This document shows positions 5,852 to 33,139 of a DNA stretch of 64,000 nt, one piece after another. Source of the DNA: Thermodesulfobacteriota bacterium (GTDB lineage Bacteria; Desulfobacterota_D; UBA1144; Nemesobacterales; Nemesobacteraceae); assembly GCA_965204665.1 (NCBI GenBank), contig OZ242002.1, positions 1,285,865 to 1,349,864 of the forward strand. The letters run 5' to 3'. Positions within the stretch are counted from its first letter, which is position 1. Every line of letters begins with the position of its first letter. Position numbers and translations under genes: made by a program. The notes below the pieces were generated by a model, which saw only the letters and a program-made list of their open reading frames with translations, was not told the origin of the DNA and did not search any database.

Positions 5852-6385
5852 TCAGCCGGGTACTCCTCCGAGCGGATTCCATTTATCGGTGAGAAGAAGC
5901 ATTCCGGGAAGCAGAAGGGTCAGTACCGACTCTATAATGAACAGATACGCTATCGGCTTGCCGAGGTCCTTGCCCTGGGCAAACGCAAAGAAGCAGAGAA
6001 GCACCAGCAGAGCCCAAGCCCAGCAGAAATAAGCAAATTCCGCAAGCCCGAGACCGTTGAAATGCAACCCGTACCATATGAATACCACAGTCGCGAAAAG
6101 ACAGTACACTCCGAGCCCCTTTGCATCATGACCATGCACAAACACCGCGTACACGAGCAGATATATAAGAGCAAACACACTTACAAGCGCCGTCGCCGCC
6201 GTCAAACCTAGAGTATGCAACTTCCAGGCGGCGATCGCTATCAGCACGCCTACGCCCAGATTGAGCACACCGACTTCCTTTGCGCCGGTTTTCCCCAGAA
6301 GGGTCATCCCATTCGCAAAAAAGACAAAACCAACCAACAACAGTACATAACCTAATAAAGCTTCTACTGGAACCATCGAAACCAT
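5852..6385 (-). CDS. AmiS/UreI-family membrane channel (putative urea or amide transporter)
   Basis: 177 aa with 6 TM; N-terminal pattern LLGYVLLLVGFVFFANG...K..K..GVLNLGVGVLIAI resembles AmiS/UreI. Confidence 0.65.
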   Translation of the reverse strand: MVSMVPVEALLGYVLLLVGFVFFANGMTLLGKTGAKEVGVLNLGVGVLIAIAAWKLHTLGLTAATALVSVFALIYLLVYAVFVHGHDAKGLGVYCLFATVVFIWYGLHFNGLGLAEFAYFCWAWALLVLLCFFAFAQGKDLGKPIAYLFIIESVLTLLLPGMLLLTDKWNPLGGVPG

Positions 6386-7038
6386 ACCTCCTTATGTTTG
6401 ATAAAAGTTCCTGCGCCCCCATGCTCAGGGGTTCTATACACCTTTTATCACAGTTCGGACATAAATGTCAAGCAAAAAATTGCAAATGATTAATTATTGT
6501 AAATATATAACTTACTAAGTTCTGATCTTCTGAAAGTATCAAGTCGGGTTCGATTTTGTCTCTCAAATGACTATTATCGGACACCGAGCAGACTTCTGCT
6601 CAAGTTTGAATTCGTACAGCGACGCATACCGGGCGATGTCATCAGACACCGCTTGCGCACCCGTAACGACAAACTGTTCTCTACGGTTAACGTCAGTAAC
6701 ATCCGACATCCTTTTCGCCTTGCCGCCCTCCGCGCATATTCCGGCAGTTTACTGATAAGGCTTTACAGCATTTGTATTGCTGAATTATTCAGCACAGAAC
6801 ACTCCGCTCCCCCGAAACTCATACGACCCATTTTCAATCTCACATTAAGTTGTCGTAGATTTCCGGTTTTCAGGAAAAATTCGTCCTGCAGTGTCAGAAA
6901 AATCCTGACTTGATACTCGGTATTTCACCGAAATTTTTTGCCGACACGTTTGCTTGCCGGGCCGGCAATTCTTTTACCGCAAGGTTTGAAATTGCGGCGA
7001 ACATAAATACGGAACTTCTTAACTTTCTGTTTCTTCAG

Positions 7039-7047
7039 TGTTATAAT
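7039..7047 (+). promoter_or_regulatory. extended -10 element TGTTATAAT upstream of the 7086 gene
   Basis: Exact match to TGnTATAAT about 38 nt upstream of the ATG. An RBS GGAGGG lies at 7070-7075. Confidence 0.5.
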
Positions 7048-7085
7048 TTCACTTGAGAACCGTATTCCGGAGGGTATGATAAAAA

Positions 7086-7466
7086 ATGGCGAAAAAAAAA
7101 TCAGCCGGCGGGATACCCGCCGATATATGGAGGAAACAACCAGAGAACGGAGCAAGGAGCGCCGGTATAGCGGGCACGGCACTAGGTATTCAGACCGATG
7201 TGCTTCCTAAATACAAAACCTTCGATGTTATCACACTGAGGATAAGCAGGGCGGATTTCGAGTTTCTCCACAATCTCGAGAGAGACATAATGAAAAATCG
7301 TTCCAGCGAGAATAAAAAGGAGAGAATAACCAAGAACACTGTTGTGAGGGCCATGCTTTCCTGCTTTAGAAACATAAAATTCGACAAAGATGAAATTCCT
7401 AATGAAGCTGAACTTAGGGCGAGGATAATGAAAGGTTTGAAGGAGCACCCTTCCTGGTTGTTTTGA
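7086..7466 (+). CDS. hypothetical 126-aa basic protein, possible small DNA-binding or regulatory protein
   Basis: Good promoter and RBS. Lys/Arg-rich. Convergent with the PLD-helicase gene. No recognisable family. Confidence 0.45.
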   Translation: MAKKKSAGGIPADIWRKQPENGARSAGIAGTALGIQTDVLPKYKTFDVITLRISRADFEFLHNLERDIMKNRSSENKKERITKNTVVRAMLSCFRNIKFDKDEIPNEAELRARIMKGLKEHPSWLF

Positions 7467-7555
7467 GGAGTCACTTTATCGTATTTTGCAACAGTCGACT
7501 TGATGTAGGGAGGTCTTAAATCACGGTGCTTGTCAATCAAGCGGGGACAACATCT

Positions 7556-10500
7556 TCAACCCGCGGCTGTCTTTGCGGCCTGATAAAGCCACCCCGGCAT
7601 TGGACGTTTTAGTTCCCACAGTATTTTCATGGGATGTTCAGACTCGTGGCTTCGGTATCGGGCGTGGCCGAGGCAGTGGTATGGAAGGGTCCCGCCTCCG
7701 CTACCCTTTTTGCGTTCACGCACAAACAAGATGACATTCGTATTACCTTGTTCAACGTACCGGAGACCGGTAGGCGTATCAGGTGATGTGGTATTCTGCG
7801 ATTCCCAGTGAAACAGTGTCGGCGATATTGGATAGTCGTTGTAGCGTGTAGAGGGCGAGAAATCTTGGTCAGATTTCTCCAGCGTGATGAACAAGAGATC
7901 TGTTTGCGTTTTCTTATTCCATAGAACACCACCTTGCGGAAGGGCAATCGCGTTGCGTCTGTCGGTGTGTCTGTATGCCGCCATGATCTCACCGAGTGTA
8001 TAAGTTGCATGGCTCGCCAAGGGAATATCACCTTTCGGGTCAATCGGTTCGGGAACTGTGCGGATGCGGTCGGCGAGAATTTCCAGTAGGTCGAGAATCT
8101 CGCGGTGCAACTCTGATGACTCGCAGATTTTTTCTAATGTCTGGTCGGCTTCTTCAATTGATTGCCCACGGCTACCAAGAATGGCAAACAACATGAGTCC
8201 TAGTCGATGTTTGCGGCCCTGCAGTCTCGAAATCCTGTCAGAACGACTCGTTTCCAAGATGTCGCGCCATGCTTCAATTCTCTCGTTGTCGTCTATGTGG
8301 ACCAGTCTACCGAAAGTTTTGAGAACAGGGTTGTCGGTTGACAGACCGGTGTTTAGATCAAAACCCGCTCGCTTGCGGAGTTCAGTAAAACAGTGCCCTG
8401 AACTAGGTCGCGCGTAGATATCTTCTAATGCTGCGTCGGCGTCACGTATGAAAGCACGGAGTCCCGCACTTGGTCCGAGGGCGCGTAAATCGTCGATGAG
8501 ACGCGCACGGGAGTTATGAACGGCTTTTTTAAGATTTCGCAGTACTGTGTTTTTGGAAATGCGGTCCAGTTTGAAAGCGCATCCCGGGGGTAGAAGCGGG
8601 AAGTCGTTTTCTAAGGAGCGCAGTACCTGATGACGGGTGCCTCCCAGTAGAACTCGATAACGTACATCGTAGCGATACTCACGGCGAACTTGATCAACGA
8701 AGTCCAGGACGGTAAGAACCTGCTTTCCTTCTGCCCAGCGAAGTCCTCTTCCCAGTTGCTGGAGAAACACCGTAGCGCTTTCGGTTGGTCGAAGCATCAG
8801 CACGGTGTCGACTTCGGGGATGTCCACTCCCTCGTTGAACAGGTCCACGGTGAAGATGGCGCGGAGTTTGCCCTGTCGCAGGTCCTCAAGCGCATTGCGA
8901 CGGTCATCTTGTGGAGTCTTTGAATCAAGCGCTCGTGCCGGGTAGCCGAAGCGGATGAACTCGCTTGCCATAAAGTGAGCATGGTGGACACCCGCGCAGA
9001 ACCCTAGGGCGCGCATTCGGTGCGGGTCCGTCACCCATTCCTCTATAGCTCGGCAGACCCGCATAGATCGAACATGGTCGCCGGTAAGCAGGTTGTCAAG
9101 TTCGTTTGTTATATATCTCCCGCGCTCAAAACCGACCGTAGAAAGGTCTGTCGCGCTATTCACCCCAAAATAGTGAAACGGACAGAGCAGTCCTTGGTCA
9201 AGTGCGTCCCAAAGCCGAGACTCTGATGCGATGCGGCCGTCGAACCACTCGAGAACCGACTGGCCGTCGGAGCGTTCGGGCGTAGCTGTGAGTCCAAGCA
9301 AAACTTCCGGTTTCAAACGAGACAGCAGTCGTTTGTAACTCTTAGCCGCGGCATGGTGGAATTCGTCCACGATAACCACGGCGAATCCATCCGGGTCAAT
9401 ATCATCAATACATTTGCTGAGGGATTGTATCGAGGCGAAAACATGGCGACCTACTTGTGGATGCTCACCCCCGACCAACAGCTCACCGAATTCCGGTTTT
9501 CCCAGAACCAGTTTAAAAACCCTACGACTCTGACGAAGAATTTCCTCTCTGTGCGCGACAAAGAGCAGAGAATCCAAACCTTGATTGTGCAGTCTCTTGA
9601 AGTCGAATGCCGCAATCCAAGTCTTGCCGGTGCCTGTGGCTGCCACCACGAGATTGCGGCGGTGTCCACGCATCCGTTCCGCTTCAAGTGCTTCAAGTGT
9701 CGTAGATTGATGCGGTTTGGGCGTAACATCCACCAGTAAATGCCGTGTGTTCACCTCATTTGGTGAATCACCTGGTCGCTGTCCTGAGAGTGCCTGATCT
9801 ACTCGGTCAGCATCACGTTCGGGTTCATAATCCTCAAATTCGGGCTCATGCCAATACTGTTCGAAGGTTGTCTTAAATCTTTCGATTACTTCGGGGTTCT
9901 CGACTGCGCTCACGCGCATGTTCCATTCAAGGCCCTCAACCTGTGCTGTACGGGTAAGGTTAGACGAACCGATATAGGCGGTGTGCATTCCACTGCGACG
10001 GTGGAACATCCATGCCTTGGCATGAAGGCGAGTCCGAGCGACTTCGAACGAAATCTTAACTTGCGCGCCGAGATTGATAAGCGCGTCTAGCGCGCGACGC
10101 TCTGTCGACCCTGTATAGACGCTTGTGATCACGCGTATCTGCGTTCCCTCCTGCACACGTTTCTCAAGCTCAGATTGAAATAGACGCAACCCTGAGTAGC
10201 GTACAAACGCGCACAGCAGGTCAATCCGGTCGGCACTTGGTATTTCCCGCTCAATCTCGCTTGCGATCTGAACATCGCGCCGTCCGTTGACGAGAAGCCC
10301 GGTTCGGCGAAGAGGTAGCGCCGGACGAGCGGTAGGCGTGGGATTGTCGTCTGGAGTAAGGCATTTGACAACTTCAGCGATGATGCGGACGGTATCTGTG
10401 ACTTGGTTGTCAGTCGTCACGCCATGTTTGAAAAGCACCTCTACGAGCCGGTTAACAAGGGCGATTTGTTCGGTGGATTGAGTATTTTCATTGCCTGGTA

Positions 10501-10738
10501 TTTCTTCAAGGGCGCATCGAAGGAGTTTGTATATGTGCCGGGCTAATATCTCGGGACGGACGGTTCTGTCGGTCGAACGGACATCCACCCACCAGCCCTG
10601 CGTTTTTCGGGCATTGATTTCCGCCTCCAGAGCAGAGGTGATCAACTCTTCGTAAAGTCCAGAATGAATCAGACGTGTCATAACTGACCTGAACGGAGGA
10701 GAACAAGCGGCAACATCTGCACCGCTATCAAATTTCAA
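7556..10738 (-). CDS. PLD-like (HKD) nuclease / SF2 DEAH-type helicase / C-terminal DUF3427-like fusion protein (COG3886+COG1061 architecture)
   Basis: HKD motif RLHAKAWMF...YIGSSNLT. Helicase motif I VVAATGTGKT, motif II VIVDEFHH, motif III TATP and motif VI QQLGRGLR. A long C-terminal region of ~330 aa follows. Confidence 0.8.
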   Translation of the reverse strand: MKFDSGADVAACSPPFRSVMTRLIHSGLYEELITSALEAEINARKTQGWWVDVRSTDRTVRPEILARHIYKLLRCALEEIPGNENTQSTEQIALVNRLVEVLFKHGVTTDNQVTDTVRIIAEVVKCLTPDDNPTPTARPALPLRRTGLLVNGRRDVQIASEIEREIPSADRIDLLCAFVRYSGLRLFQSELEKRVQEGTQIRVITSVYTGSTERRALDALINLGAQVKISFEVARTRLHAKAWMFHRRSGMHTAYIGSSNLTRTAQVEGLEWNMRVSAVENPEVIERFKTTFEQYWHEPEFEDYEPERDADRVDQALSGQRPGDSPNEVNTRHLLVDVTPKPHQSTTLEALEAERMRGHRRNLVVAATGTGKTWIAAFDFKRLHNQGLDSLLFVAHREEILRQSRRVFKLVLGKPEFGELLVGGEHPQVGRHVFASIQSLSKCIDDIDPDGFAVVIVDEFHHAAAKSYKRLLSRLKPEVLLGLTATPERSDGQSVLEWFDGRIASESRLWDALDQGLLCPFHYFGVNSATDLSTVGFERGRYITNELDNLLTGDHVRSMRVCRAIEEWVTDPHRMRALGFCAGVHHAHFMASEFIRFGYPARALDSKTPQDDRRNALEDLRQGKLRAIFTVDLFNEGVDIPEVDTVLMLRPTESATVFLQQLGRGLRWAEGKQVLTVLDFVDQVRREYRYDVRYRVLLGGTRHQVLRSLENDFPLLPPGCAFKLDRISKNTVLRNLKKAVHNSRARLIDDLRALGPSAGLRAFIRDADAALEDIYARPSSGHCFTELRKRAGFDLNTGLSTDNPVLKTFGRLVHIDDNERIEAWRDILETSRSDRISRLQGRKHRLGLMLFAILGSRGQSIEEADQTLEKICESSELHREILDLLEILADRIRTVPEPIDPKGDIPLASHATYTLGEIMAAYRHTDRRNAIALPQGGVLWNKKTQTDLLFITLEKSDQDFSPSTRYNDYPISPTLFHWESQNTTSPDTPTGLRYVEQGNTNVILFVRERKKGSGGGTLPYHCLGHARYRSHESEHPMKILWELKRPMPGWLYQAAKTAAG

Positions 10739-10868
10739 TTGTCCTCTCAGTTCTAAACCATACCGAGTGTACGTAATTTTACGCGGAATTCACAACATAA
10801 TATTGGTGAATTAGCAGTATGCGGAGTAGCTGGGTGCGGAAAAAACAGTTCGGTTTGAAAAAAACTGC

Positions 10869-10898
10869 TTGACAACATGCGGTGAGGTTTGATTAAAT
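10869..10898 (+). promoter_or_regulatory. putative sigma70 promoter for the ADC-like operon (TTGACA, 17-18 nt spacer, TTAAAT)
   Basis: Read in the divergent intergenic region; followed by a ~160-nt GC-rich structured leader. Confidence 0.35.
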
Positions 10899-11061
10899 AA
10901 ATAACGGGTGAGGTCGCCCCCGCGGCGACCGTCGGATTGTGAGGCTTGATCACGTATACAGAGGGGAGAGGGTTAGGGAGACGGGGGTTGAGGTTCTGGA
11001 GTGTGCGGGTTCCGGATTACTTGCGGTCCGGCCTGAAATCTAATTGTAAGGAGGCTGCAAT

Positions 11062-12042
11062 ATGAGCCATAGTCATTTAAACGTCCCGTTGAAGTACTGG
11101 GAGTTGACGAAAGAGGTCCCGCCCCCTCCGATAGAGCGGGATATAAAGTCGTGGATCATAGCGAATCCGTCGGATCCGCTGTGGGACATAGATGTGCTGC
11201 CGTTGACGTATACGGACAGCAGGTGGTCGGCGTTCGTGGTGAGGTGCGACGAGGCGACGAGGAGTCGTCTGTGCCCGAATCCTCCGTTGGAGGTGTGGGA
11301 CGGGGAGAATGCCGATCTGGTGGAGTTCTGGTATGTGGATCATAAGAACACGATGCTGGGTCCGTATCTCGAGTTCGGAGTGACGATATCGGCGACATAC
11401 AAGGATCCTCAGGGCAATGTGTGGAAGGCGGGGTACTATCCGTATATGTATCTGACGGGTGATGCGCCGGTGGATGCTGGCAGGGTGCTTGGATTTCCGA
11501 AGAAGATGTCGTACATCAGATGTACGGTGCACGGCGGGGAGAAGGGGACGGACTTTTTCGGATTTGCGATGAGTCGTAACGGGTATCTGATGCACAGTGC
11601 GACGGGTCAGTTCGACGACAAGCAGGTTACGCCGCCGTTTTTCTACGGGAAGACGGATTGGGGCAAGTTCAACATGAAGGTTATAACGAGGCCCGACGTA
11701 TCGAGTTCGGAGTGGCAGTTGACGTATCTGCCGTCGGCGCTGCCGCCGCCGTTCGACACGATGATACAGGGGCACAGGTTCAAGATAAAGCCCGAGCACA
11801 CGAGGACTGCGTCGGGGGATGCGGTGAACTGGTTCATGCAGGCTACGCCGTTCGACAACATGGGGGCCGAGTTGAAGATACAGGAGGTTACGGGATTGAT
11901 ATCGTTCGTGTTCGATCTTGTGATACCGCCTGCGCAGGTGCTGTGGACGGAGACGTATGAGAGGCCGGCCAGTTACAGGGGTTATGCGACGCCGTACAAG
12001 TACGGGTTGAGGCAGCAGTTCCCGATAAGTCAGGGGTCATAA
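11062..12042 (+). CDS. acetoacetate decarboxylase (ADC) family protein, paralogue 1
   Basis: Shares the ADC signature with Clostridium ADC (VVPEP-like region, GNVWKAGYYPYMYLTGD, GFPKK). The Schiff-base lysine position is conserved. Confidence 0.75.
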   Translation: MSHSHLNVPLKYWELTKEVPPPPIERDIKSWIIANPSDPLWDIDVLPLTYTDSRWSAFVVRCDEATRSRLCPNPPLEVWDGENADLVEFWYVDHKNTMLGPYLEFGVTISATYKDPQGNVWKAGYYPYMYLTGDAPVDAGRVLGFPKKMSYIRCTVHGGEKGTDFFGFAMSRNGYLMHSATGQFDDKQVTPPFFYGKTDWGKFNMKVITRPDVSSSEWQLTYLPSALPPPFDTMIQGHRFKIKPEHTRTASGDAVNWFMQATPFDNMGAELKIQEVTGLISFVFDLVIPPAQVLWTETYERPASYRGYATPYKYGLRQQFPISQGS

Positions 12043-12074
12043 AAAGAAAGGAATTTTCAAGGAGGTAAGAAATA

Positions 12075-13046
12075 ATGGGATTACAAGCGAATGAGTACAG
12101 TTATCCGTGGTTGGACGAGGGAGAGGTGCCGCCGCTGCCGTTGGACAGGGACAGGATACACATAATAAGTCAGGGAGTGGCGGATCCCGTGTTCGACTAC
12201 GACATCGTACCGTTGACGTATACGGAGAGCAGATGGATGGCCTATGTGATAAGGGCTGACATCAATGCGATGAAGGCGGTGGTGCCGGAGCCGATAGAGG
12301 TTACGGATGACGTGATAGAGTTCTGGTACGTGATACATAAGAACACTATGCTGGGACCGTACATGGAGATGGGAGTGACGTTTTCCGCTACAGTGGATTC
12401 GGGGGACGGGCAGATATACAAGGCGGGGTACTATCCGTATATGTATCTGTCGAACGATTCGCCGATATTCGCGGGTAAGGAGCCGTTCGGGTTTCCGAAG
12501 AAGGCTGCGTACATAGCGGGATTCGAGCACGGAACCAACAACAATTATTTCAATCATCTGATGGAGCGCAGGGGATACATACTGCATACGGCGAACGGGC
12601 GTTATTCGGACAAGCCTTTGTCCGCGAGGCCGACGTTTTACGGCAAGACGGACTGGGGCAGGATGAATTACAGGATAACGACGAGGCCCGACGTATCGAA
12701 CAGCATCCACGAGGTGACGTATCTTCCGTCGGATCTTCCGCCGGGATTCGGGACGGGTCACAGGTTCCAGTTGAATCCCGAGAGTGTGAGGACGGCGGTG
12801 GGGGAGGATGTGCGTTCGTGGTATATGTCTGGGACGCCGTTCGACTATATGGGAGGTCAGATACCTGCGACGGAAGTTGTAGGGCTGATAAGTTTTACAT
12901 TCAATCTGATAATACCGCCTGCGTTGACGATCTGGAGCAGGACGGTGGAGAGGAGTACGGACGACATGAGTCATGTTGTGTATTCCACGCCGTTCGAGTA
13001 TACGATGCGTCACAGGTTCCTGCTGCCGCAGTACAGCCAGGGATAA
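12075..13046 (+). CDS. acetoacetate decarboxylase (ADC) family protein, paralogue 2
   Basis: AMKAVVPEPIEV, YKAGYYPYMYLSND and GFPKKAAY motifs; about 45-50% identical to paralogue 1; RBS AGGAGG. Confidence 0.75.
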   Translation: MGLQANEYSYPWLDEGEVPPLPLDRDRIHIISQGVADPVFDYDIVPLTYTESRWMAYVIRADINAMKAVVPEPIEVTDDVIEFWYVIHKNTMLGPYMEMGVTFSATVDSGDGQIYKAGYYPYMYLSNDSPIFAGKEPFGFPKKAAYIAGFEHGTNNNYFNHLMERRGYILHTANGRYSDKPLSARPTFYGKTDWGRMNYRITTRPDVSNSIHEVTYLPSDLPPGFGTGHRFQLNPESVRTAVGEDVRSWYMSGTPFDYMGGQIPATEVVGLISFTFNLIIPPALTIWSRTVERSTDDMSHVVYSTPFEYTMRHRFLLPQYSQG

Positions 13047-26125: not shown

Positions 26126-27658
26126 TCAGTCTACAAACTCATACTTGTTCTGACTGATGATGTTTCCCGCCTTGTCGTTGTCCGCCGTGCTGCCTATCTG
26201 AACAACTTCAGTTCCTCCCACGGAAATCTTGCCGGCAGCGTTGGTCAACGCTCCGGCCCCAGCCGCGAAGCCCCTGAACTGAATCCTGTCGTCCGCCAAT
26301 GTGAAGTCCGTAATGATGTCCACACCGCCGTCGGCTTTTCTGATGAGGAAAGTGTCGTTTCCGGCTCCGCCGGTAAGGTTGTCGGCGCCTTCTTCACCTA
26401 TGAGAACATCATTCCCTGCTCCTCCGTCAAGAGTGTCGGTACCTTTACCGCCTCTGAGGGTGTCGTTCCCTCCTCTGCCTTCAAGAGTGTCGTCGGCGTT
26501 TCCTCCTCTGAGAGTATTCGCCTTGCCGTCCCCTTTAAAAGTAACGGCGGTAGTACGAGGACCGAACCTTGACACAGCAGTAAGGTTCTCGAAGTTGGAA
26601 GCAAAACTGGGAGGATTCGCAAGATCGAAGGTACTAAGCGCGTTACTGCCCCATGAAGCGGCAGTACTCCCACCAGCAATGAGATATGTACCTCCATACA
26701 CTACAAGGGTATCATTTCCCGGCCCGCCATCTGTTGTACCTGCTCCGGCGTTCCCGGTGGGTGGAGAGGGGTCGATTGTGTCATCTCCGGCTCCACCCTT
26801 TATAGTGTCGATACCGAACCATCCATCTATAATATTGTCTTTATCGTCTCCGATAATAGTGTCGTTACCGATACCGCCGACAACATCCTCAATACCCGTA
26901 ATTTTATCACTCCCATATGTAGCATGCGTCGAAGAGCCTAGGCTGAGGTCTACAGTATGACCCGCTGTAATGAAACTTGTGGGTGGGCGACTGGTGGTCC
27001 CGGGTGCAAGAGGAGGAGCAAAAACCAGCCTGTCATGGTCTCCGGCACCACCGATAAACGTATCGTCACCCGGGTCGGTAATGAGAAATTCATCATTACC
27101 GGGTCCGCCGTAGATCGTATCATTACCGGGTCCGCCGTAGAAAAACCCCCTCCCCTTTCCACCGTAGAGAGTGTCATTTCCGTCTCCACCCCGGAAATGG
27201 TCGTTCCCGTCTTCGCCGTAGAGAGTGTCATCGCCGTTCTCACCGTAGAGCAGATCATTACCTCCTCCGCCGTAAACAGTATCATCACCATCACCGGCTT
27301 TAATGTCGTTGATGTATTGATTTCCGCAGATGACATCGTCATCCGCAGTTCCCGTGACATCATCGGAGACACCGGGAAGCGCATTTATACCGTTGCTGAC
27401 GTCGCATCTGGGATCACCGAAGGACTTTCCCGGATCTCCCTGCAGACCCGTCGCTCCCGGTGCTCCCGAGTCTCCTTTATCTCCCTTATCCCCCTTATCT
27501 CCTTTCGCCCCGTCTTTCCCTGCCGGTCCCGCAGGCCCCATGTCTCCTTCACAGGCGGCAAAGAAAACCGCTCCGCCGAGCAGAAACAACAAAACTAAGA
27601 AATTACGTAATTTCATAATACAACCTCCTTTGATAAGATGTTTTTTATTAATAAGCAA
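26126..27658 (-). CDS. lipoprotein with collagen-like Gly-X-Y repeats and RTX (hemolysin-type calcium-binding) nonapeptide repeats, paralogue 1
   Basis: Signal peptide plus lipobox (LFAAC). GPAGPAGKDGAKGDKGDKGDKGD collagen-like region. Many GGxGNDxxY repeats. Confidence 0.8.
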   Translation of the reverse strand: MLINKKHLIKGGCIMKLRNFLVLLFLLGGAVFFAACEGDMGPAGPAGKDGAKGDKGDKGDKGDSGAPGATGLQGDPGKSFGDPRCDVSNGINALPGVSDDVTGTADDDVICGNQYINDIKAGDGDDTVYGGGGNDLLYGENGDDTLYGEDGNDHFRGGDGNDTLYGGKGRGFFYGGPGNDTIYGGPGNDEFLITDPGDDTFIGGAGDHDRLVFAPPLAPGTTSRPPTSFITAGHTVDLSLGSSTHATYGSDKITGIEDVVGGIGNDTIIGDDKDNIIDGWFGIDTIKGGAGDDTIDPSPPTGNAGAGTTDGGPGNDTLVVYGGTYLIAGGSTAASWGSNALSTFDLANPPSFASNFENLTAVSRFGPRTTAVTFKGDGKANTLRGGNADDTLEGRGGNDTLRGGKGTDTLDGGAGNDVLIGEEGADNLTGGAGNDTFLIRKADGGVDIITDFTLADDRIQFRGFAAGAGALTNAAGKISVGGTEVVQIGSTADNDKAGNIISQNKYEFVD

Positions 27659-31292: not shown

Positions 31293-31769
31293 TCATTTGC
31301 TTGCGTAGTGAGGACAAAGCTGGCTGATCTTCAAGCACAGACGTTTCATTAAAGAATCTTGTTGCCGCCAGTCGCTGTCCGTCGCGTTCAGCACAACCGC
31401 ATTCGCTTTCACTGCTACCGCAAGAAATTTCCGGTCGCTCGGGTCAAAGTTGTTTCGGGGCAACTCTTCAAAACTTCTCCGGTCATCCTCCGACGGAGTA
31501 ATGACAACTCTCCGTACGCGGCCATTCGGCAAGTGTTGGTTATCCCATAGATATTTGAAAAACATGTCACCTACTCCCGGTTTGCCGGAGAGAGACAGGT
31601 GATTTCTATATTCTTCGATGATCAACCCTCTTTCATCGACCGCTACAGTTTCTCTCTCGACCACTTCCTGCAATTTTTCCACGCAGCTCAGTTGACATTT
31701 AAAGTCAATATTTTCGTTGCCGCCGTTAGCCACGACGGCAACATTGGTATCAACGACAAATACATTCAT
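31293..31769 (-). CDS. PIN-domain nuclease
   Basis: FVVDTNV (Asp7), acidic residues around 38-40, and DRKFLAVAVKANAVVLNATDSDW (Asp112, Asp131/133). The start codon overlaps the stop of the upstream ATPase gene. Confidence 0.65.
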   Translation of the reverse strand: MNVFVVDTNVAVVANGGNENIDFKCQLSCVEKLQEVVERETVAVDERGLIIEEYRNHLSLSGKPGVGDMFFKYLWDNQHLPNGRVRRVVITPSEDDRRSFEELPRNNFDPSDRKFLAVAVKANAVVLNATDSDWRQQDSLMKRLCLKISQLCPHYASK

Positions 31770-33139
31770 CAGGAATGTCCTATTCTTCTTTTCAAAGAAG
31801 CTTTGGCTATAGCTGCTACTTCTCCCATTTCATCGCCGAAGAAATTCTTCGGCCAGTTCTCCACCTCTCCCCACTCATTGAGGGACAGATCGGAAATCTG
31901 CGCTTTATGTCCTCTAGTCGATACAAAATACAATTTGATGTTCTCCGGAGATTCCTTTCCCTCTGCCACCCTGCGCTGCAGGCGGCGCAACAGATATTCG
32001 CTATGGCTTTCCACGATGATTTGCACATCTCGGACATTGGAAACTTCCAACATCAGATCTGCAAGTCCGCTCTGCACTGCAGGATGGAGATGTATCTCGG
32101 GTTGTTCCATCAGCACAGTGGAGCCTTCCGGGACATAGTAAAGAAGTACCAACGCCGGCAGAACTTGCGATACGCCGAATCCAACATCGGTTAATGCGGT
32201 TTGCGGACTTGACCTGGATGTCTTCACGATTGCCCTGTACAGATTAGTTCCCTCGGAGATCTCCTCGATGCTGAATTCGTGAATAAGCCCCAGTTTTTTG
32301 AGCCAGTGTGCGATCACTTCCTGAAATGTTTTTTCTGGATAATATTTGATACGTTTCATTTCTTTATTGCGGGTAGCGGCGAGAATCGCTTCGACCGTGC
32401 GTTCACCTCGTTGTCCGACATCGCAGGGGCCGGAACCGGCCCAATTATATTGTCGTTGCGGATATTCCCGCAGAGGACCGAGGTAGTAGATGGAGTCCAT
32501 CAAATTTTCGTATTCCCACTCGAAAAGATTCAGAAACTCGGCGTTCTGATAGTGAAAACGCATGTCCGGAAACAGGTGTGTCTTGATCGGGCGGGGAATA
32601 GTGTTTGCTTGACCTTTGTTGCGTACGAATTCAAAATCGTCAGCAGTTGTCTTCAGGTCGAATTCATTATCCGACCTAGGCTTGGATTTCAACCGGAAAT
32701 CCGCCCCGGCGAACCTGTAGGCTAACTCATATGTCCAAGGAAGGTCGTTCTTCATGCCGACCTGGCATCGAGTCTGAAGAGAGTTACCTTTCAGTTGAGG
32801 GATGGAAGGTCCGGTCTGCATGTTCATCTCTCTCATCATGTCTGAGAGTTCGAGAGTATCGGATAACGACCAGTCAAGGAGCCAGCCGATCCGCTTTTTT
32901 TCATCATGAAGGTGCACTATATCACGAAAGGACCTGAGGCTTACTAAGTCGGAAGGACCTCCGAAATGGAGCACCAACCGGCGGTCTGTCGCATTCTTGG
33001 TCTGTTTAAGCAGGAGTAGAAATTGTAGAAGACTGCTCTTGCCCGCACTGTTTGTGCCGAAAAATCCGGTTACTTTTCCGAATCGTATGTCCGCTTCCTT
33101 CCACGCCTTGAAATTTGAGAGTTGCAGTTTGTTTATCAT
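31769..33139 (-). CDS. ABC-type AAA ATPase (AAA_15/AAA_21-like) with a C-terminal DUF3696-like motif
   Basis: Walker A GTNSAGKSS. Walker B / D-loop VLMEQPEIHLHP. H-loop ESHSE. C-terminal WPKNFFGDE. Confidence 0.7.
   Translation of the reverse strand: MINKLQLSNFKAWKEADIRFGKVTGFFGTNSAGKSSLLQFLLLLKQTKNATDRRLVLHFGGPSDLVSLRSFRDIVHLHDEKKRIGWLLDWSLSDTLELSDMMREMNMQTGPSIPQLKGNSLQTRCQVGMKNDLPWTYELAYRFAGADFRLKSKPRSDNEFDLKTTADDFEFVRNKGQANTIPRPIKTHLFPDMRFHYQNAEFLNLFEWEYENLMDSIYYLGPLREYPQRQYNWAGSGPCDVGQRGERTVEAILAATRNKEMKRIKYYPEKTFQEVIAHWLKKLGLIHEFSIEEISEGTNLYRAIVKTSRSSPQTALTDVGFGVSQVLPALVLLYYVPEGSTVLMEQPEIHLHPAVQSGLADLMLEVSNVRDVQIIVESHSEYLLRRLQRRVAEGKESPENIKLYFVSTRGHKAQISDLSLNEWGEVENWPKNFFGDEMGEVAAIAKASLKRRIGHS

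Follow-up and report, generated by a model that had tools for sequence, protein, structure and literature searches.

A solitary insert in a core chromosomal region of a Thermodesulfobacteriota bacterium probably encodes a SauUSI/ScoA3I-type Type IV restriction endonuclease

In the 64,000-nucleotide stretch of Thermodesulfobacteriota DNA analyzed here (contig OZ242002.1, forward-strand positions 1,285,865 to 1,349,864; hereafter the window), a large reverse-strand gene joins a PLD-family nuclease, a helicase-like motor, and a C-terminal DUF3427 domain in one polypeptide, and a small gene for a basic protein converges on it. The question raised by this locus was what the large protein does and whether the small gene takes part in it. 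The initial annotation, made from the letters of the DNA, had proposed a stand-alone nucleic-acid-degrading defence protein, described it as a nuclease/helicase/DUF3427-type fusion, pointed to helicase-PLD combinations in systems such as Mokosh, and considered the small gene as a possible regulator or inhibitor. From the comparisons described here, we estimate a probability of about 85% that the product of the large gene belongs to the SauUSI/ScoA3I family, Type IV (modification-dependent) endonucleases that depend on ATP and consist of one polypeptide. The kind of protein had thus been recognized correctly as defensive, but it can be placed more precisely in a known Type IV family, to which the enzyme is an ordinary addition and neither an unclassified fusion nor a relative of Mokosh.

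The assignment was based on profile, sequence, and fold searches. The PADLOC model PDLC03659 (mREase_IV, Type IV methyl-directed restriction enzyme) matched residues 136-1058 of the 1060-residue open reading frame (ORF) at model positions 14-944 of 945, with a score of 817.9 bits and an E-value of 2.6e-246. The SauUSI-type model PDLC03658 scored 257 bits, over the nuclease and motor only. The lengths of the PDLC models, 953 and 945, are those of SauUSI and ScoA3I (Sco2863), respectively (PMC3141236, PMC6765204), and because of the identical length of 945, PDLC03659 was probably seeded by ScoA3I. The link to ScoA3I rests on this model length and on the literature; no Streptomyces proteins appeared among the best 120 matches to a Streptosporangium homologue, a query aimed at Sco2863. 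In the case of solved structures, SauUSI (7CLG, chain 7clg_A) was the top PDB match by sequence (phmmer E 1.2e-79, residues 148-692). It was also the top match by fold when an AlphaFold2 (AF2) model of the enzyme was compared with solved structures using Foldseek (E 2.4e-30, 945 columns, collinear), and it was the sole close solved structure by sequence and fold. Moreover, no DNA methyltransferase motif was found in any real ORF of the window, and the enzyme gene is solitary.

The maximal ORF runs from 7556 to 10738 on the reverse strand and would encode 1060 amino acids (aa) from a TTG start, which is longer than the likely real gene. The true start is almost certainly the ATG at 10681, since an identical protein of 1041 aa is recorded in the database (P0001), the homologues all begin at the equivalent Met (MTR..GLYE), and the DNA of the sister genome ceases to be homologous 6 nt upstream of this ATG. 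The putative SauUSI/ScoA3I-family Type IV restriction endonuclease gene was therefore placed at 7556..10681 (-), with 1041 aa and a stop codon at 7556-7558. The 1060-aa frame reported by the initial annotation does exist, but the conserved start shortens its product; the ORFs and sequence features it had listed were all recovered in their places. Numbered from ATG 10681, the motifs are HAKAWMFH (220-227), GSSN (238-241), GTGKT (350-354), DEFHH (439-443), TATP (465-468), and QQLGRGLR (641-648). The earlier label of a DEAH-type helicase was dropped, as motif II reads DEFH.

Base composition was of little help. The guanine-cytosine (GC) content of the enzyme gene is 0.530, the window mean is 0.497 ± 0.024, and 9.4% of equal-sized windows were as GC-rich. 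The gene is richer than the left flank (0.45-0.51), as had been claimed, but poorer than the ADC-like genes on the right (0.56 and 0.54), so the reported enrichment was marginal overall. The GC content at third codon positions (GC3) is 0.53, which is unremarkable. GC content was considered as a sign of foreign origin and rejected as too weak.

The protein was divided into five regions, all encoded on the reverse strand. An N-terminal extension (residues ~1-115; 10337..10681) has no Pfam match and contains four predicted helices (AF2 helices 9-27, 42-59, 65-85, and 94-106, with low predicted local distance difference test (pLDDT) values) and a GLYExLxT motif. It is followed by the PLD-family nuclease (residues ~129-285; 9827..10297), with the HKD-like motif HAKAWMFH at 10001-10024, and by the SF2 helicase-like ATPase (residues ~319-690; 8612..9727), which was aligned to SauUSI 230-569. 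A helical coupler (residues ~691-880; 8042..8611) is all-helical in the AF2 model, with pLDDT 75-90 from residue ~720, and collinear with the SauUSI coupler in Foldseek, the coupler being delimited as in PMC7913695. The C-terminus is formed by a DUF3427 SRA-like target-recognition domain (TRD; residues ~881-1041; 7559..8041; pLDDT 80-93), assigned from the Pfam and SauUSI TRD matches. Every Pfam family suggested for checking was matched, in the order PLDc_2 (E 4.3e-10), ResIII (9e-35), Helicase_C (8e-16), and DUF3427 (3.7e-21). The DUF3427 label of the C-terminus was thus upheld, and the objection that this region might lack such a match fell away.

The residues required for cleavage were of particular interest. 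The candidate catalytic residues H220, K222, N241, and E252 align with SauUSI H119, K121, N139, and E150 (phmmer) and are invariant in an alignment of 46 homologues. In SauUSI, the mutation of each of these four to Ala abolishes cleavage (PMC3141236). A candidate base-flipping pocket in the C-terminal domain comprises V919, W921, F931, I932, D949, and W959. When the C-terminal ~165 residues were searched as a profile against the PDB, the sole match was the SauUSI TRD (839-918, E 7.3e-5). In SauUSI, F841, I842, D858, W868, Met829, and Tyr831 are the predicted 5-methylcytosine (5mC) pocket residues (PMC7913695). F931, I932, D949, and W959 are identical to the aligned F841, I842, D858, and W868, which gives four of the six predicted residues, including the Asp predicted to read cytosine.

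Comparison with characterized enzymes placed these features in context. SauUSI is the single-chain Type IV archetype, with ATP-dependent cutting of S5mCNGS and S5hmCNGS DNA, 5hmC being 5-hydroxymethylcytosine, and it consists of a PLD domain (1-191), an SF2 ATPase, a coupler (618-805), and an SRA-fold TRD (806-953) that corresponds to Pfam DUF3427 (PMC3141236, PMC7913695). The window enzyme shares with it the domain order, the catalytic H/K/N/E, SF2 motifs I, II, III, and VI, the helical coupler, and the SRA-like TRD with identical F, I, D, and W pocket residues, and neither has a cognate methyltransferase. However, the window enzyme has an extra N-terminal helical extension of ~100 aa, His227 in place of Glu126, and Val and Trp in place of Met829 and Tyr831. 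ScoA3I of Streptomyces coelicolor A3(2), the named enzyme nearest to that of the window, is a listed Type IV enzyme (REBASE; PMC3874153). It has the same PLD, SF2, coupler, and DUF3427 architecture, its presumed model PDLC03659 being the near end-to-end match, and its acidic HKD residue is altered (PMC6765204), as the window enzyme has His there. Both are solitary genes without a methyltransferase, in laterally acquired DNA in S. coelicolor and in an insert in the window. Unlike the 945-position model, the window enzyme and its homologues (1013-1050 aa) carry ~100 further N-terminal residues.

More distant systems were also compared. The DUF3427-PD-(D/E)XK enzymes (the McaZI group) and YenY4I share the DUF3427 sensing domain and the restriction of 5mC/5hmC DNA (PMC6765204), but they use a PD-(D/E)XK nuclease in place of the PLD domain of the window enzyme and, lacking a helicase motor such as its SF2 domain, are ATP-independent. 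Mokosh (MkoA/MkoB) and NgoAVII/CglI likewise serve in defence by pairing a PLD nuclease and an SF1/SF2 ATPase, but their domain order and partners differ and they have no DUF3427/SRA domain. NgoAVII/CglI are, moreover, multi-subunit and not modification-dependent (PMC7913695). Mokosh was rejected as a candidate identity, as MkoB matched the PLD domain with 26.7 bits and neither MkoA nor MkoC was matched; this single signal was all that the earlier comparison with Mokosh retained. The R subunits of Type I and Type III systems (HsdR, Res) were rejected as well, with motor-only matches of ~50 bits and no M or S genes nearby.

A mechanism was proposed by analogy with SauUSI (PMC7913695; bioRxiv 10.1101/2025.10.16.682607), from which we infer the substrate mark, ATP dependence, dimerization, and in vivo activity of the window enzyme. 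The SRA-like DUF3427 domain would flip a modified cytosine into the aromatic/Asp pocket. The modified base is most likely 5mC or 5hmC, and 5mC was favored as the mark in view of the ~1000-fold restriction of Dcm+ DNA by ScoA3I in S. lividans (PMC6765204). Base flipping would switch on the SF2 ATPase, which would then translocate double-stranded DNA, either by itself or while forming loops. In a dimer, each subunit would contribute its PLD domain to a single active site with His220, Lys222, Asn241, and Glu252, and this dimer would cut at distal sites, preferred sequences, or DNA ends. Repeated cycles would shred incoming methylated DNA, while unmethylated host DNA would be spared and no partner methyltransferase would be required. 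The gene itself arrived horizontally, before the split from the sister genome, as a single-gene insert of ~3.3 kb between the 126-aa gene and the promoter of the ADC operon.

The surroundings of the gene were examined accordingly. The left flank encodes an FAA hydrolase, TruA, an ABC permease, an S41 peptidase, and an AmiS/UreI channel; the right flank contains the two ADC-like genes and those for Ppx, Ppk, and a CHAD/CYTH protein. HemB, CoaBC, IlvD, MetRS, GlyS, and DnaG are encoded farther away in the window. In six relatives (L002-L005, L090, and L091), the arrangement AmiS/UreI <- small gene -> ADC -> ADC was found with the enzyme absent, and the spacer at this empty site was ~215-275 bp. 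By blastn, the backbone in the relatives was homologous on both sides and 7556-10681 had no counterpart. As conservation of the ADC promoter and leader sets in at ~10855, the insert was delimited from just after 7466 to ~10780-10855, i.e., ~3.3 kb with one gene, and the region upstream of the enzyme gene (10682..10850, (-)) is insert-specific DNA. A repeat search across the insert returned short chance repeats, with no target-site duplication and no terminal inverted repeats, and no integrase marked the insert. The tRNA scan of the window found none, so the locus is not a tRNA-linked island, and megablast of 6500-11500 against plasmid and phage collections returned no match and hence no sign of a known mobile element. 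From these sequence comparisons, the enzyme gene is a horizontal acquisition into a core chromosomal region.

The closest relative was a sister genome (L001), a Thermodesulfobacteriota metagenome-assembled genome (MAG; OZ220467.1, 2.39 Mb), which carries the enzyme at the same site. The two genes share 78% nucleotide and 79% amino-acid identity, a divergence equal to that of the backbone. Differences at the three codon positions were 0.156/0.086/0.388 for the enzyme and 0.151/0.124/0.356 for the flanking S41 peptidase. Since the enzyme has diverged as much as the backbone, it was acquired before the split of the two genomes, and purifying selection has maintained it from then on. Genes for DruA, an IS66 transposase, an AAA_15/DUF3696 ATPase, and BrxC/PglY accompany the enzyme at this site in the sister genome, and the slot, which lies between the small gene and the ADC genes, acts as a defence site of variable content. 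The stand-alone defence protein of the initial annotation was thus borne out by the syntenic site, which is empty in six relatives and adjoined by defence genes in the sister genome. DruA (Druantia) was observed at two slots in this lineage, next to truA in L090 (1-690) and next to the enzyme in L001 (13770-14663), and the defence content around this backbone segment is fluid. A genome of ~2 Mb, probably that of a sponge symbiont, would carry a barrier against cytosine-methylated DNA, with a larger island in the same slot of its sister. Defence genes are enriched in sponge symbionts (PMC5099237, PMC8163846), and the window locus fits this pattern.

The small gene (7086..7466, (+)) encodes a 126-aa basic orphan protein and converges on the enzyme gene at a distance of 89 bp. 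It is preceded by a promoter-like site at 7019..7047 (+), in which TTAACT is followed after 17 nt by TG-TATAAT (10/12 match, extended -10; TGTTATAAT at 7039-7047), and by GGAGGG at 7069-7074, and the isoelectric point (pI) of the product is 9.9. The basic protein, the extended -10, and the ribosome-binding site that had been read from the sequence were thus all present. Promoter-like sites of this type were no more numerous in the region than in shuffled sequences. The small protein has homologues in 36 clusters at 57-85% identity, nearly all of 123-127 aa, and no family or fold was detected for it in family/profile and structure searches. A strong terminator-like hairpin was also observed at 7105-7123 (-), with 8 bp, of which 7 are G-C, and a following T-run. 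It lies inside the 5' coding end of the small gene, ~430 nt downstream of the enzyme stop codon, and if it is used, the enzyme transcript would be antisense to the small gene over its full length.

Several results weighed against the identification as an active Type IV enzyme. Identity to SauUSI was ~21% overall and the TRD alignment was weak (E 7e-5). The AF2 monomer model was of moderate quality (mean pLDDT 66.5, predicted template-modelling score 0.44), although good in the C-terminal third, and the global template-modelling (TM) score to 7CLG was 0.23-0.27; the low score means that the structural agreement is local, with the same domains in the same order, and not a rigid superposition. 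The correspondences of Met829 to Val919 and of Tyr831 to Trp921 were matched by position count and not by aligned columns. No promoter-like site was found in the search upstream of the enzyme gene (10682-10850). Moreover, the acidic residue of HxK(x)4[D/E], Glu126 in SauUSI, is His227 in the window enzyme, and purified ScoA3I with a like HKD change showed no activity, whether in vitro or in E. coli (PMC6765204).

The last of these points leads to the reading that the protein is a dead or decaying SauUSI-like relic, whose HKD His kills the nuclease and leaves a helicase only or no defence role. Lutz et al. attributed the in vitro and E. coli inactivity of ScoA3I to its altered HKD Asp, which agrees with such a view, and left the conflict with S. 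lividans open (PMC6765204). However, the position of Glu126 is not among the residues proven essential in SauUSI (PMC3141236), and every one of the 77 homologous ORFs, from Proteobacteria, Actinomycetota, and Chloroflexi, had His or, rarely, Tyr at the acidic position, with His near-invariant in the alignment of 46 homologues (A1). A non-acidic residue throughout the 77 ORFs indicates an ancestral subfamily trait and not a strain-specific lesion. With the four SauUSI-essential residues invariant, the ORF intact, the codon-position pattern that of purifying selection, and a Dcm+ plasmid restricted by ScoA3I ~1000-fold in S. lividans (reported in PMC6765204), a relic was considered improbable. 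A functional SauUSI-like enzyme that senses another mark (another cytosine adduct, N4-methylcytosine, N6-methyladenine, or a hypermodified phage base), or a context other than S5mCNGS, deserves more weight, although it was still judged unlikely. Two pocket residues differ from SauUSI, so the modification and the sequence context recognized may differ; the TRD similarity is weak (E 7.3e-5), and DUF3427 and PUA-superfamily domains differ in the marks to which they have been adapted (PMC6765204). On the other hand, the predicted pocket agrees with that of SauUSI at four of its six residues, among them the predicted cytosine-reading Asp (PMC7913695), and ScoA3I acted on Dcm-methylated (5mC) DNA in vivo (PMC6765204, PMC3874153).

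Two further readings concern the place of the gene in the genome. If the 126-aa protein were a regulator, antitoxin, or inhibitor of the nuclease, the locus would be a two-gene system, for which the convergence at 89 bp, the good promoter-like site, and the adjacency in the sister genome could be cited. However, the small gene holds the AmiS/UreI <- small -> ADC slot without the enzyme in the six relatives, and in a more distant relative (L092) it lies in an unrelated context, again without the enzyme. A related small gene was found beside the enzyme homologue in none of 79 loci other than that of the sister genome, that is, in none of the 80 enzyme loci apart from the sister, and no flanking ORF family was common across the loci except AbiE in a subset. 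The small protein forms 36 clusters, compared with more than 8000 matches for the enzyme. A two-gene system was therefore held to be very unlikely, and the earlier suggestion of a regulator or inhibitor was abandoned, with the small gene present without the enzyme at seven loci and absent from 79 enzyme loci. From its distribution, the small gene is a resident backbone gene of the lineage, outside the restriction system, and its convergence with the enzyme gene is an accident of where the insert landed. A housekeeping repair or recombination helicase-nuclease of the RadD/XPB kind was regarded as the least credible reading. The helicase core gave partial matches to RadD, XPB, and UvrB, and the neighbors are housekeeping genes, but the RadD equivalog scored 97.7 bits against a cut-off of 720, over the motor only, XPB scored 16.6 bits against a cut-off of 610, and both were rejected as identities. 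The PLD and SRA-like DUF3427 domains are foreign to those families, and the gene is patchy across phyla at 64-79% identity. Since the enzyme is absent from the syntenic site of six close relatives and defence genes adjoin it in the sister genome, the objection that it might be a conserved repair helicase does not apply.

With the Type IV reading retained, the traits of the ScoA3I-type subfamily were considered. The N-terminal extension is absent from SauUSI, whose residue 31 aligns to enzyme residue 129, and from the PADLOC model, as PDLC03659 begins at enzyme residue ~113-117. Nearly all of the 77 homologous ORFs contain the GLYExLxT motif, at ~200-212 aa ahead of HAK, and annotated actinobacterial homologues are 1013-1050 aa long. 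When the N-terminal 130 aa were searched against 1.84 billion representatives, 85 matches were obtained, nearly all of them N-termini of short, probably fragmentary proteins, and none of the 85 showed a second architecture for the extension. In the work of Lutz et al., neither the 945-aa form of ScoA3I nor one longer by 46 aa was active in vitro or in E. coli (PMC6765204), and the comparison of lengths suggests that both constructs missed part of the conserved N-terminal domain. A tentative and rather doubtful possibility is that the ScoA3I-type branch is a distinct SauUSI variant in which the N-terminal helical domain of ~105 aa and the invariant His/Tyr are both functional, that the failure of ScoA3I was due to truncated constructs (945 and 991 aa against a norm of ~1013-1050) and not to a dead site, and that one clade has passed between at least five phyla or classes in apparent sponge microbiomes. 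The N-terminal domain and the His variant may thus bear on the published discrepancy over ScoA3I activity, and they offer a testable explanation of it.

In the case of the wider family, a protein database search returned at least 8000 matches to the enzyme. A clade at 64-79% identity (L006-L044) included Thermodesulfobacteriota, Alphaproteobacteria, Arenicellales, Acidobacteria, Binatia, Poriferihabitaceae, and a 'Saccharibacteria' bin, and the next tier, at 41-45% identity, was actinobacterial. The MAGs of the 64-79% clade are presumably mostly sponge-derived, judging from record names (SB06xx, jk18x, p16x, RHO1, Porifer-). This points to recent cross-phylum transfer of the clade within the sponge habitat. 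Across 80 loci, the flanks of the homologues varied and often contained AbiEi/AbiEii, ParE, Fic, DUF429, or transposases, and the spread of the family is patchy, mobile, and defence-associated, as expected of a restriction gene. The enzyme and thousands of its homologues are now labelled only 'DUF3427 domain-containing protein' or 'DEAD/DEAH box helicase', and all of them can be renamed as SauUSI/ScoA3I-type Type IV restriction enzymes.

Two recurrent neighbors of the homologues were observed. In 11-17 of the 80 loci, L008 and L013 among them, the enzyme homologue (at 8001) has an AbiEi antitoxin/AbiEii toxin pair (~6270-7960) immediately upstream and in the same orientation. Most of these loci are from Alphaproteobacteria, but one, with a truncated copy, is from an Acidobacteria MAG (L024). 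This arrangement suggests that the AbiE pair and the enzyme homologue form a co-transferred defence module. A DUF429 gene was found just upstream of the homologue in L017/L089 (6953-7681 / 8953-9681) and in L086/L087 (8427-8867). These are two unrelated contexts, only one of which has both genes on a common strand, and the association may be a coincidence.

Other features were observed elsewhere in the window. Immediately to the right of the insert, a TTGACA promoter and a GGGTGAGGT-containing leader (10855-11061) precede the ADC-like genes, both conserved across relatives; a search of 6300-11200, including this leader, against Rfam matched nothing. The tandem ADC-like paralogues that follow (11062-13046, (+)) have GC3 values of 0.75 and 0.70, compared with ~0.5 for their neighbors, and they are 85% identical at the DNA level to those of relatives, compared with 72-79% for other backbone genes there. 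Farther along, PADLOC identified a HEC-03 candidate defence system of two overlapping genes at 31293-33139 (-), namely HEC-03A (31293-31769, (-); 158 aa, E 1.2e-60) and HEC-03B (31769-33139, (-); 456 aa, E 8e-194), the latter with Pfam matches to AAA_15, AAA_21, and DUF3696. As this pair lies between the MetRS and GlyS genes, it is another isolated insert of defence genes within a core region. Between these features, a 510-aa protein (26126-27658, (-)) combines RTX calcium-binding repeats with a collagen-like repeat; it may be secreted or exposed at the surface and could fit a host-associated lifestyle.

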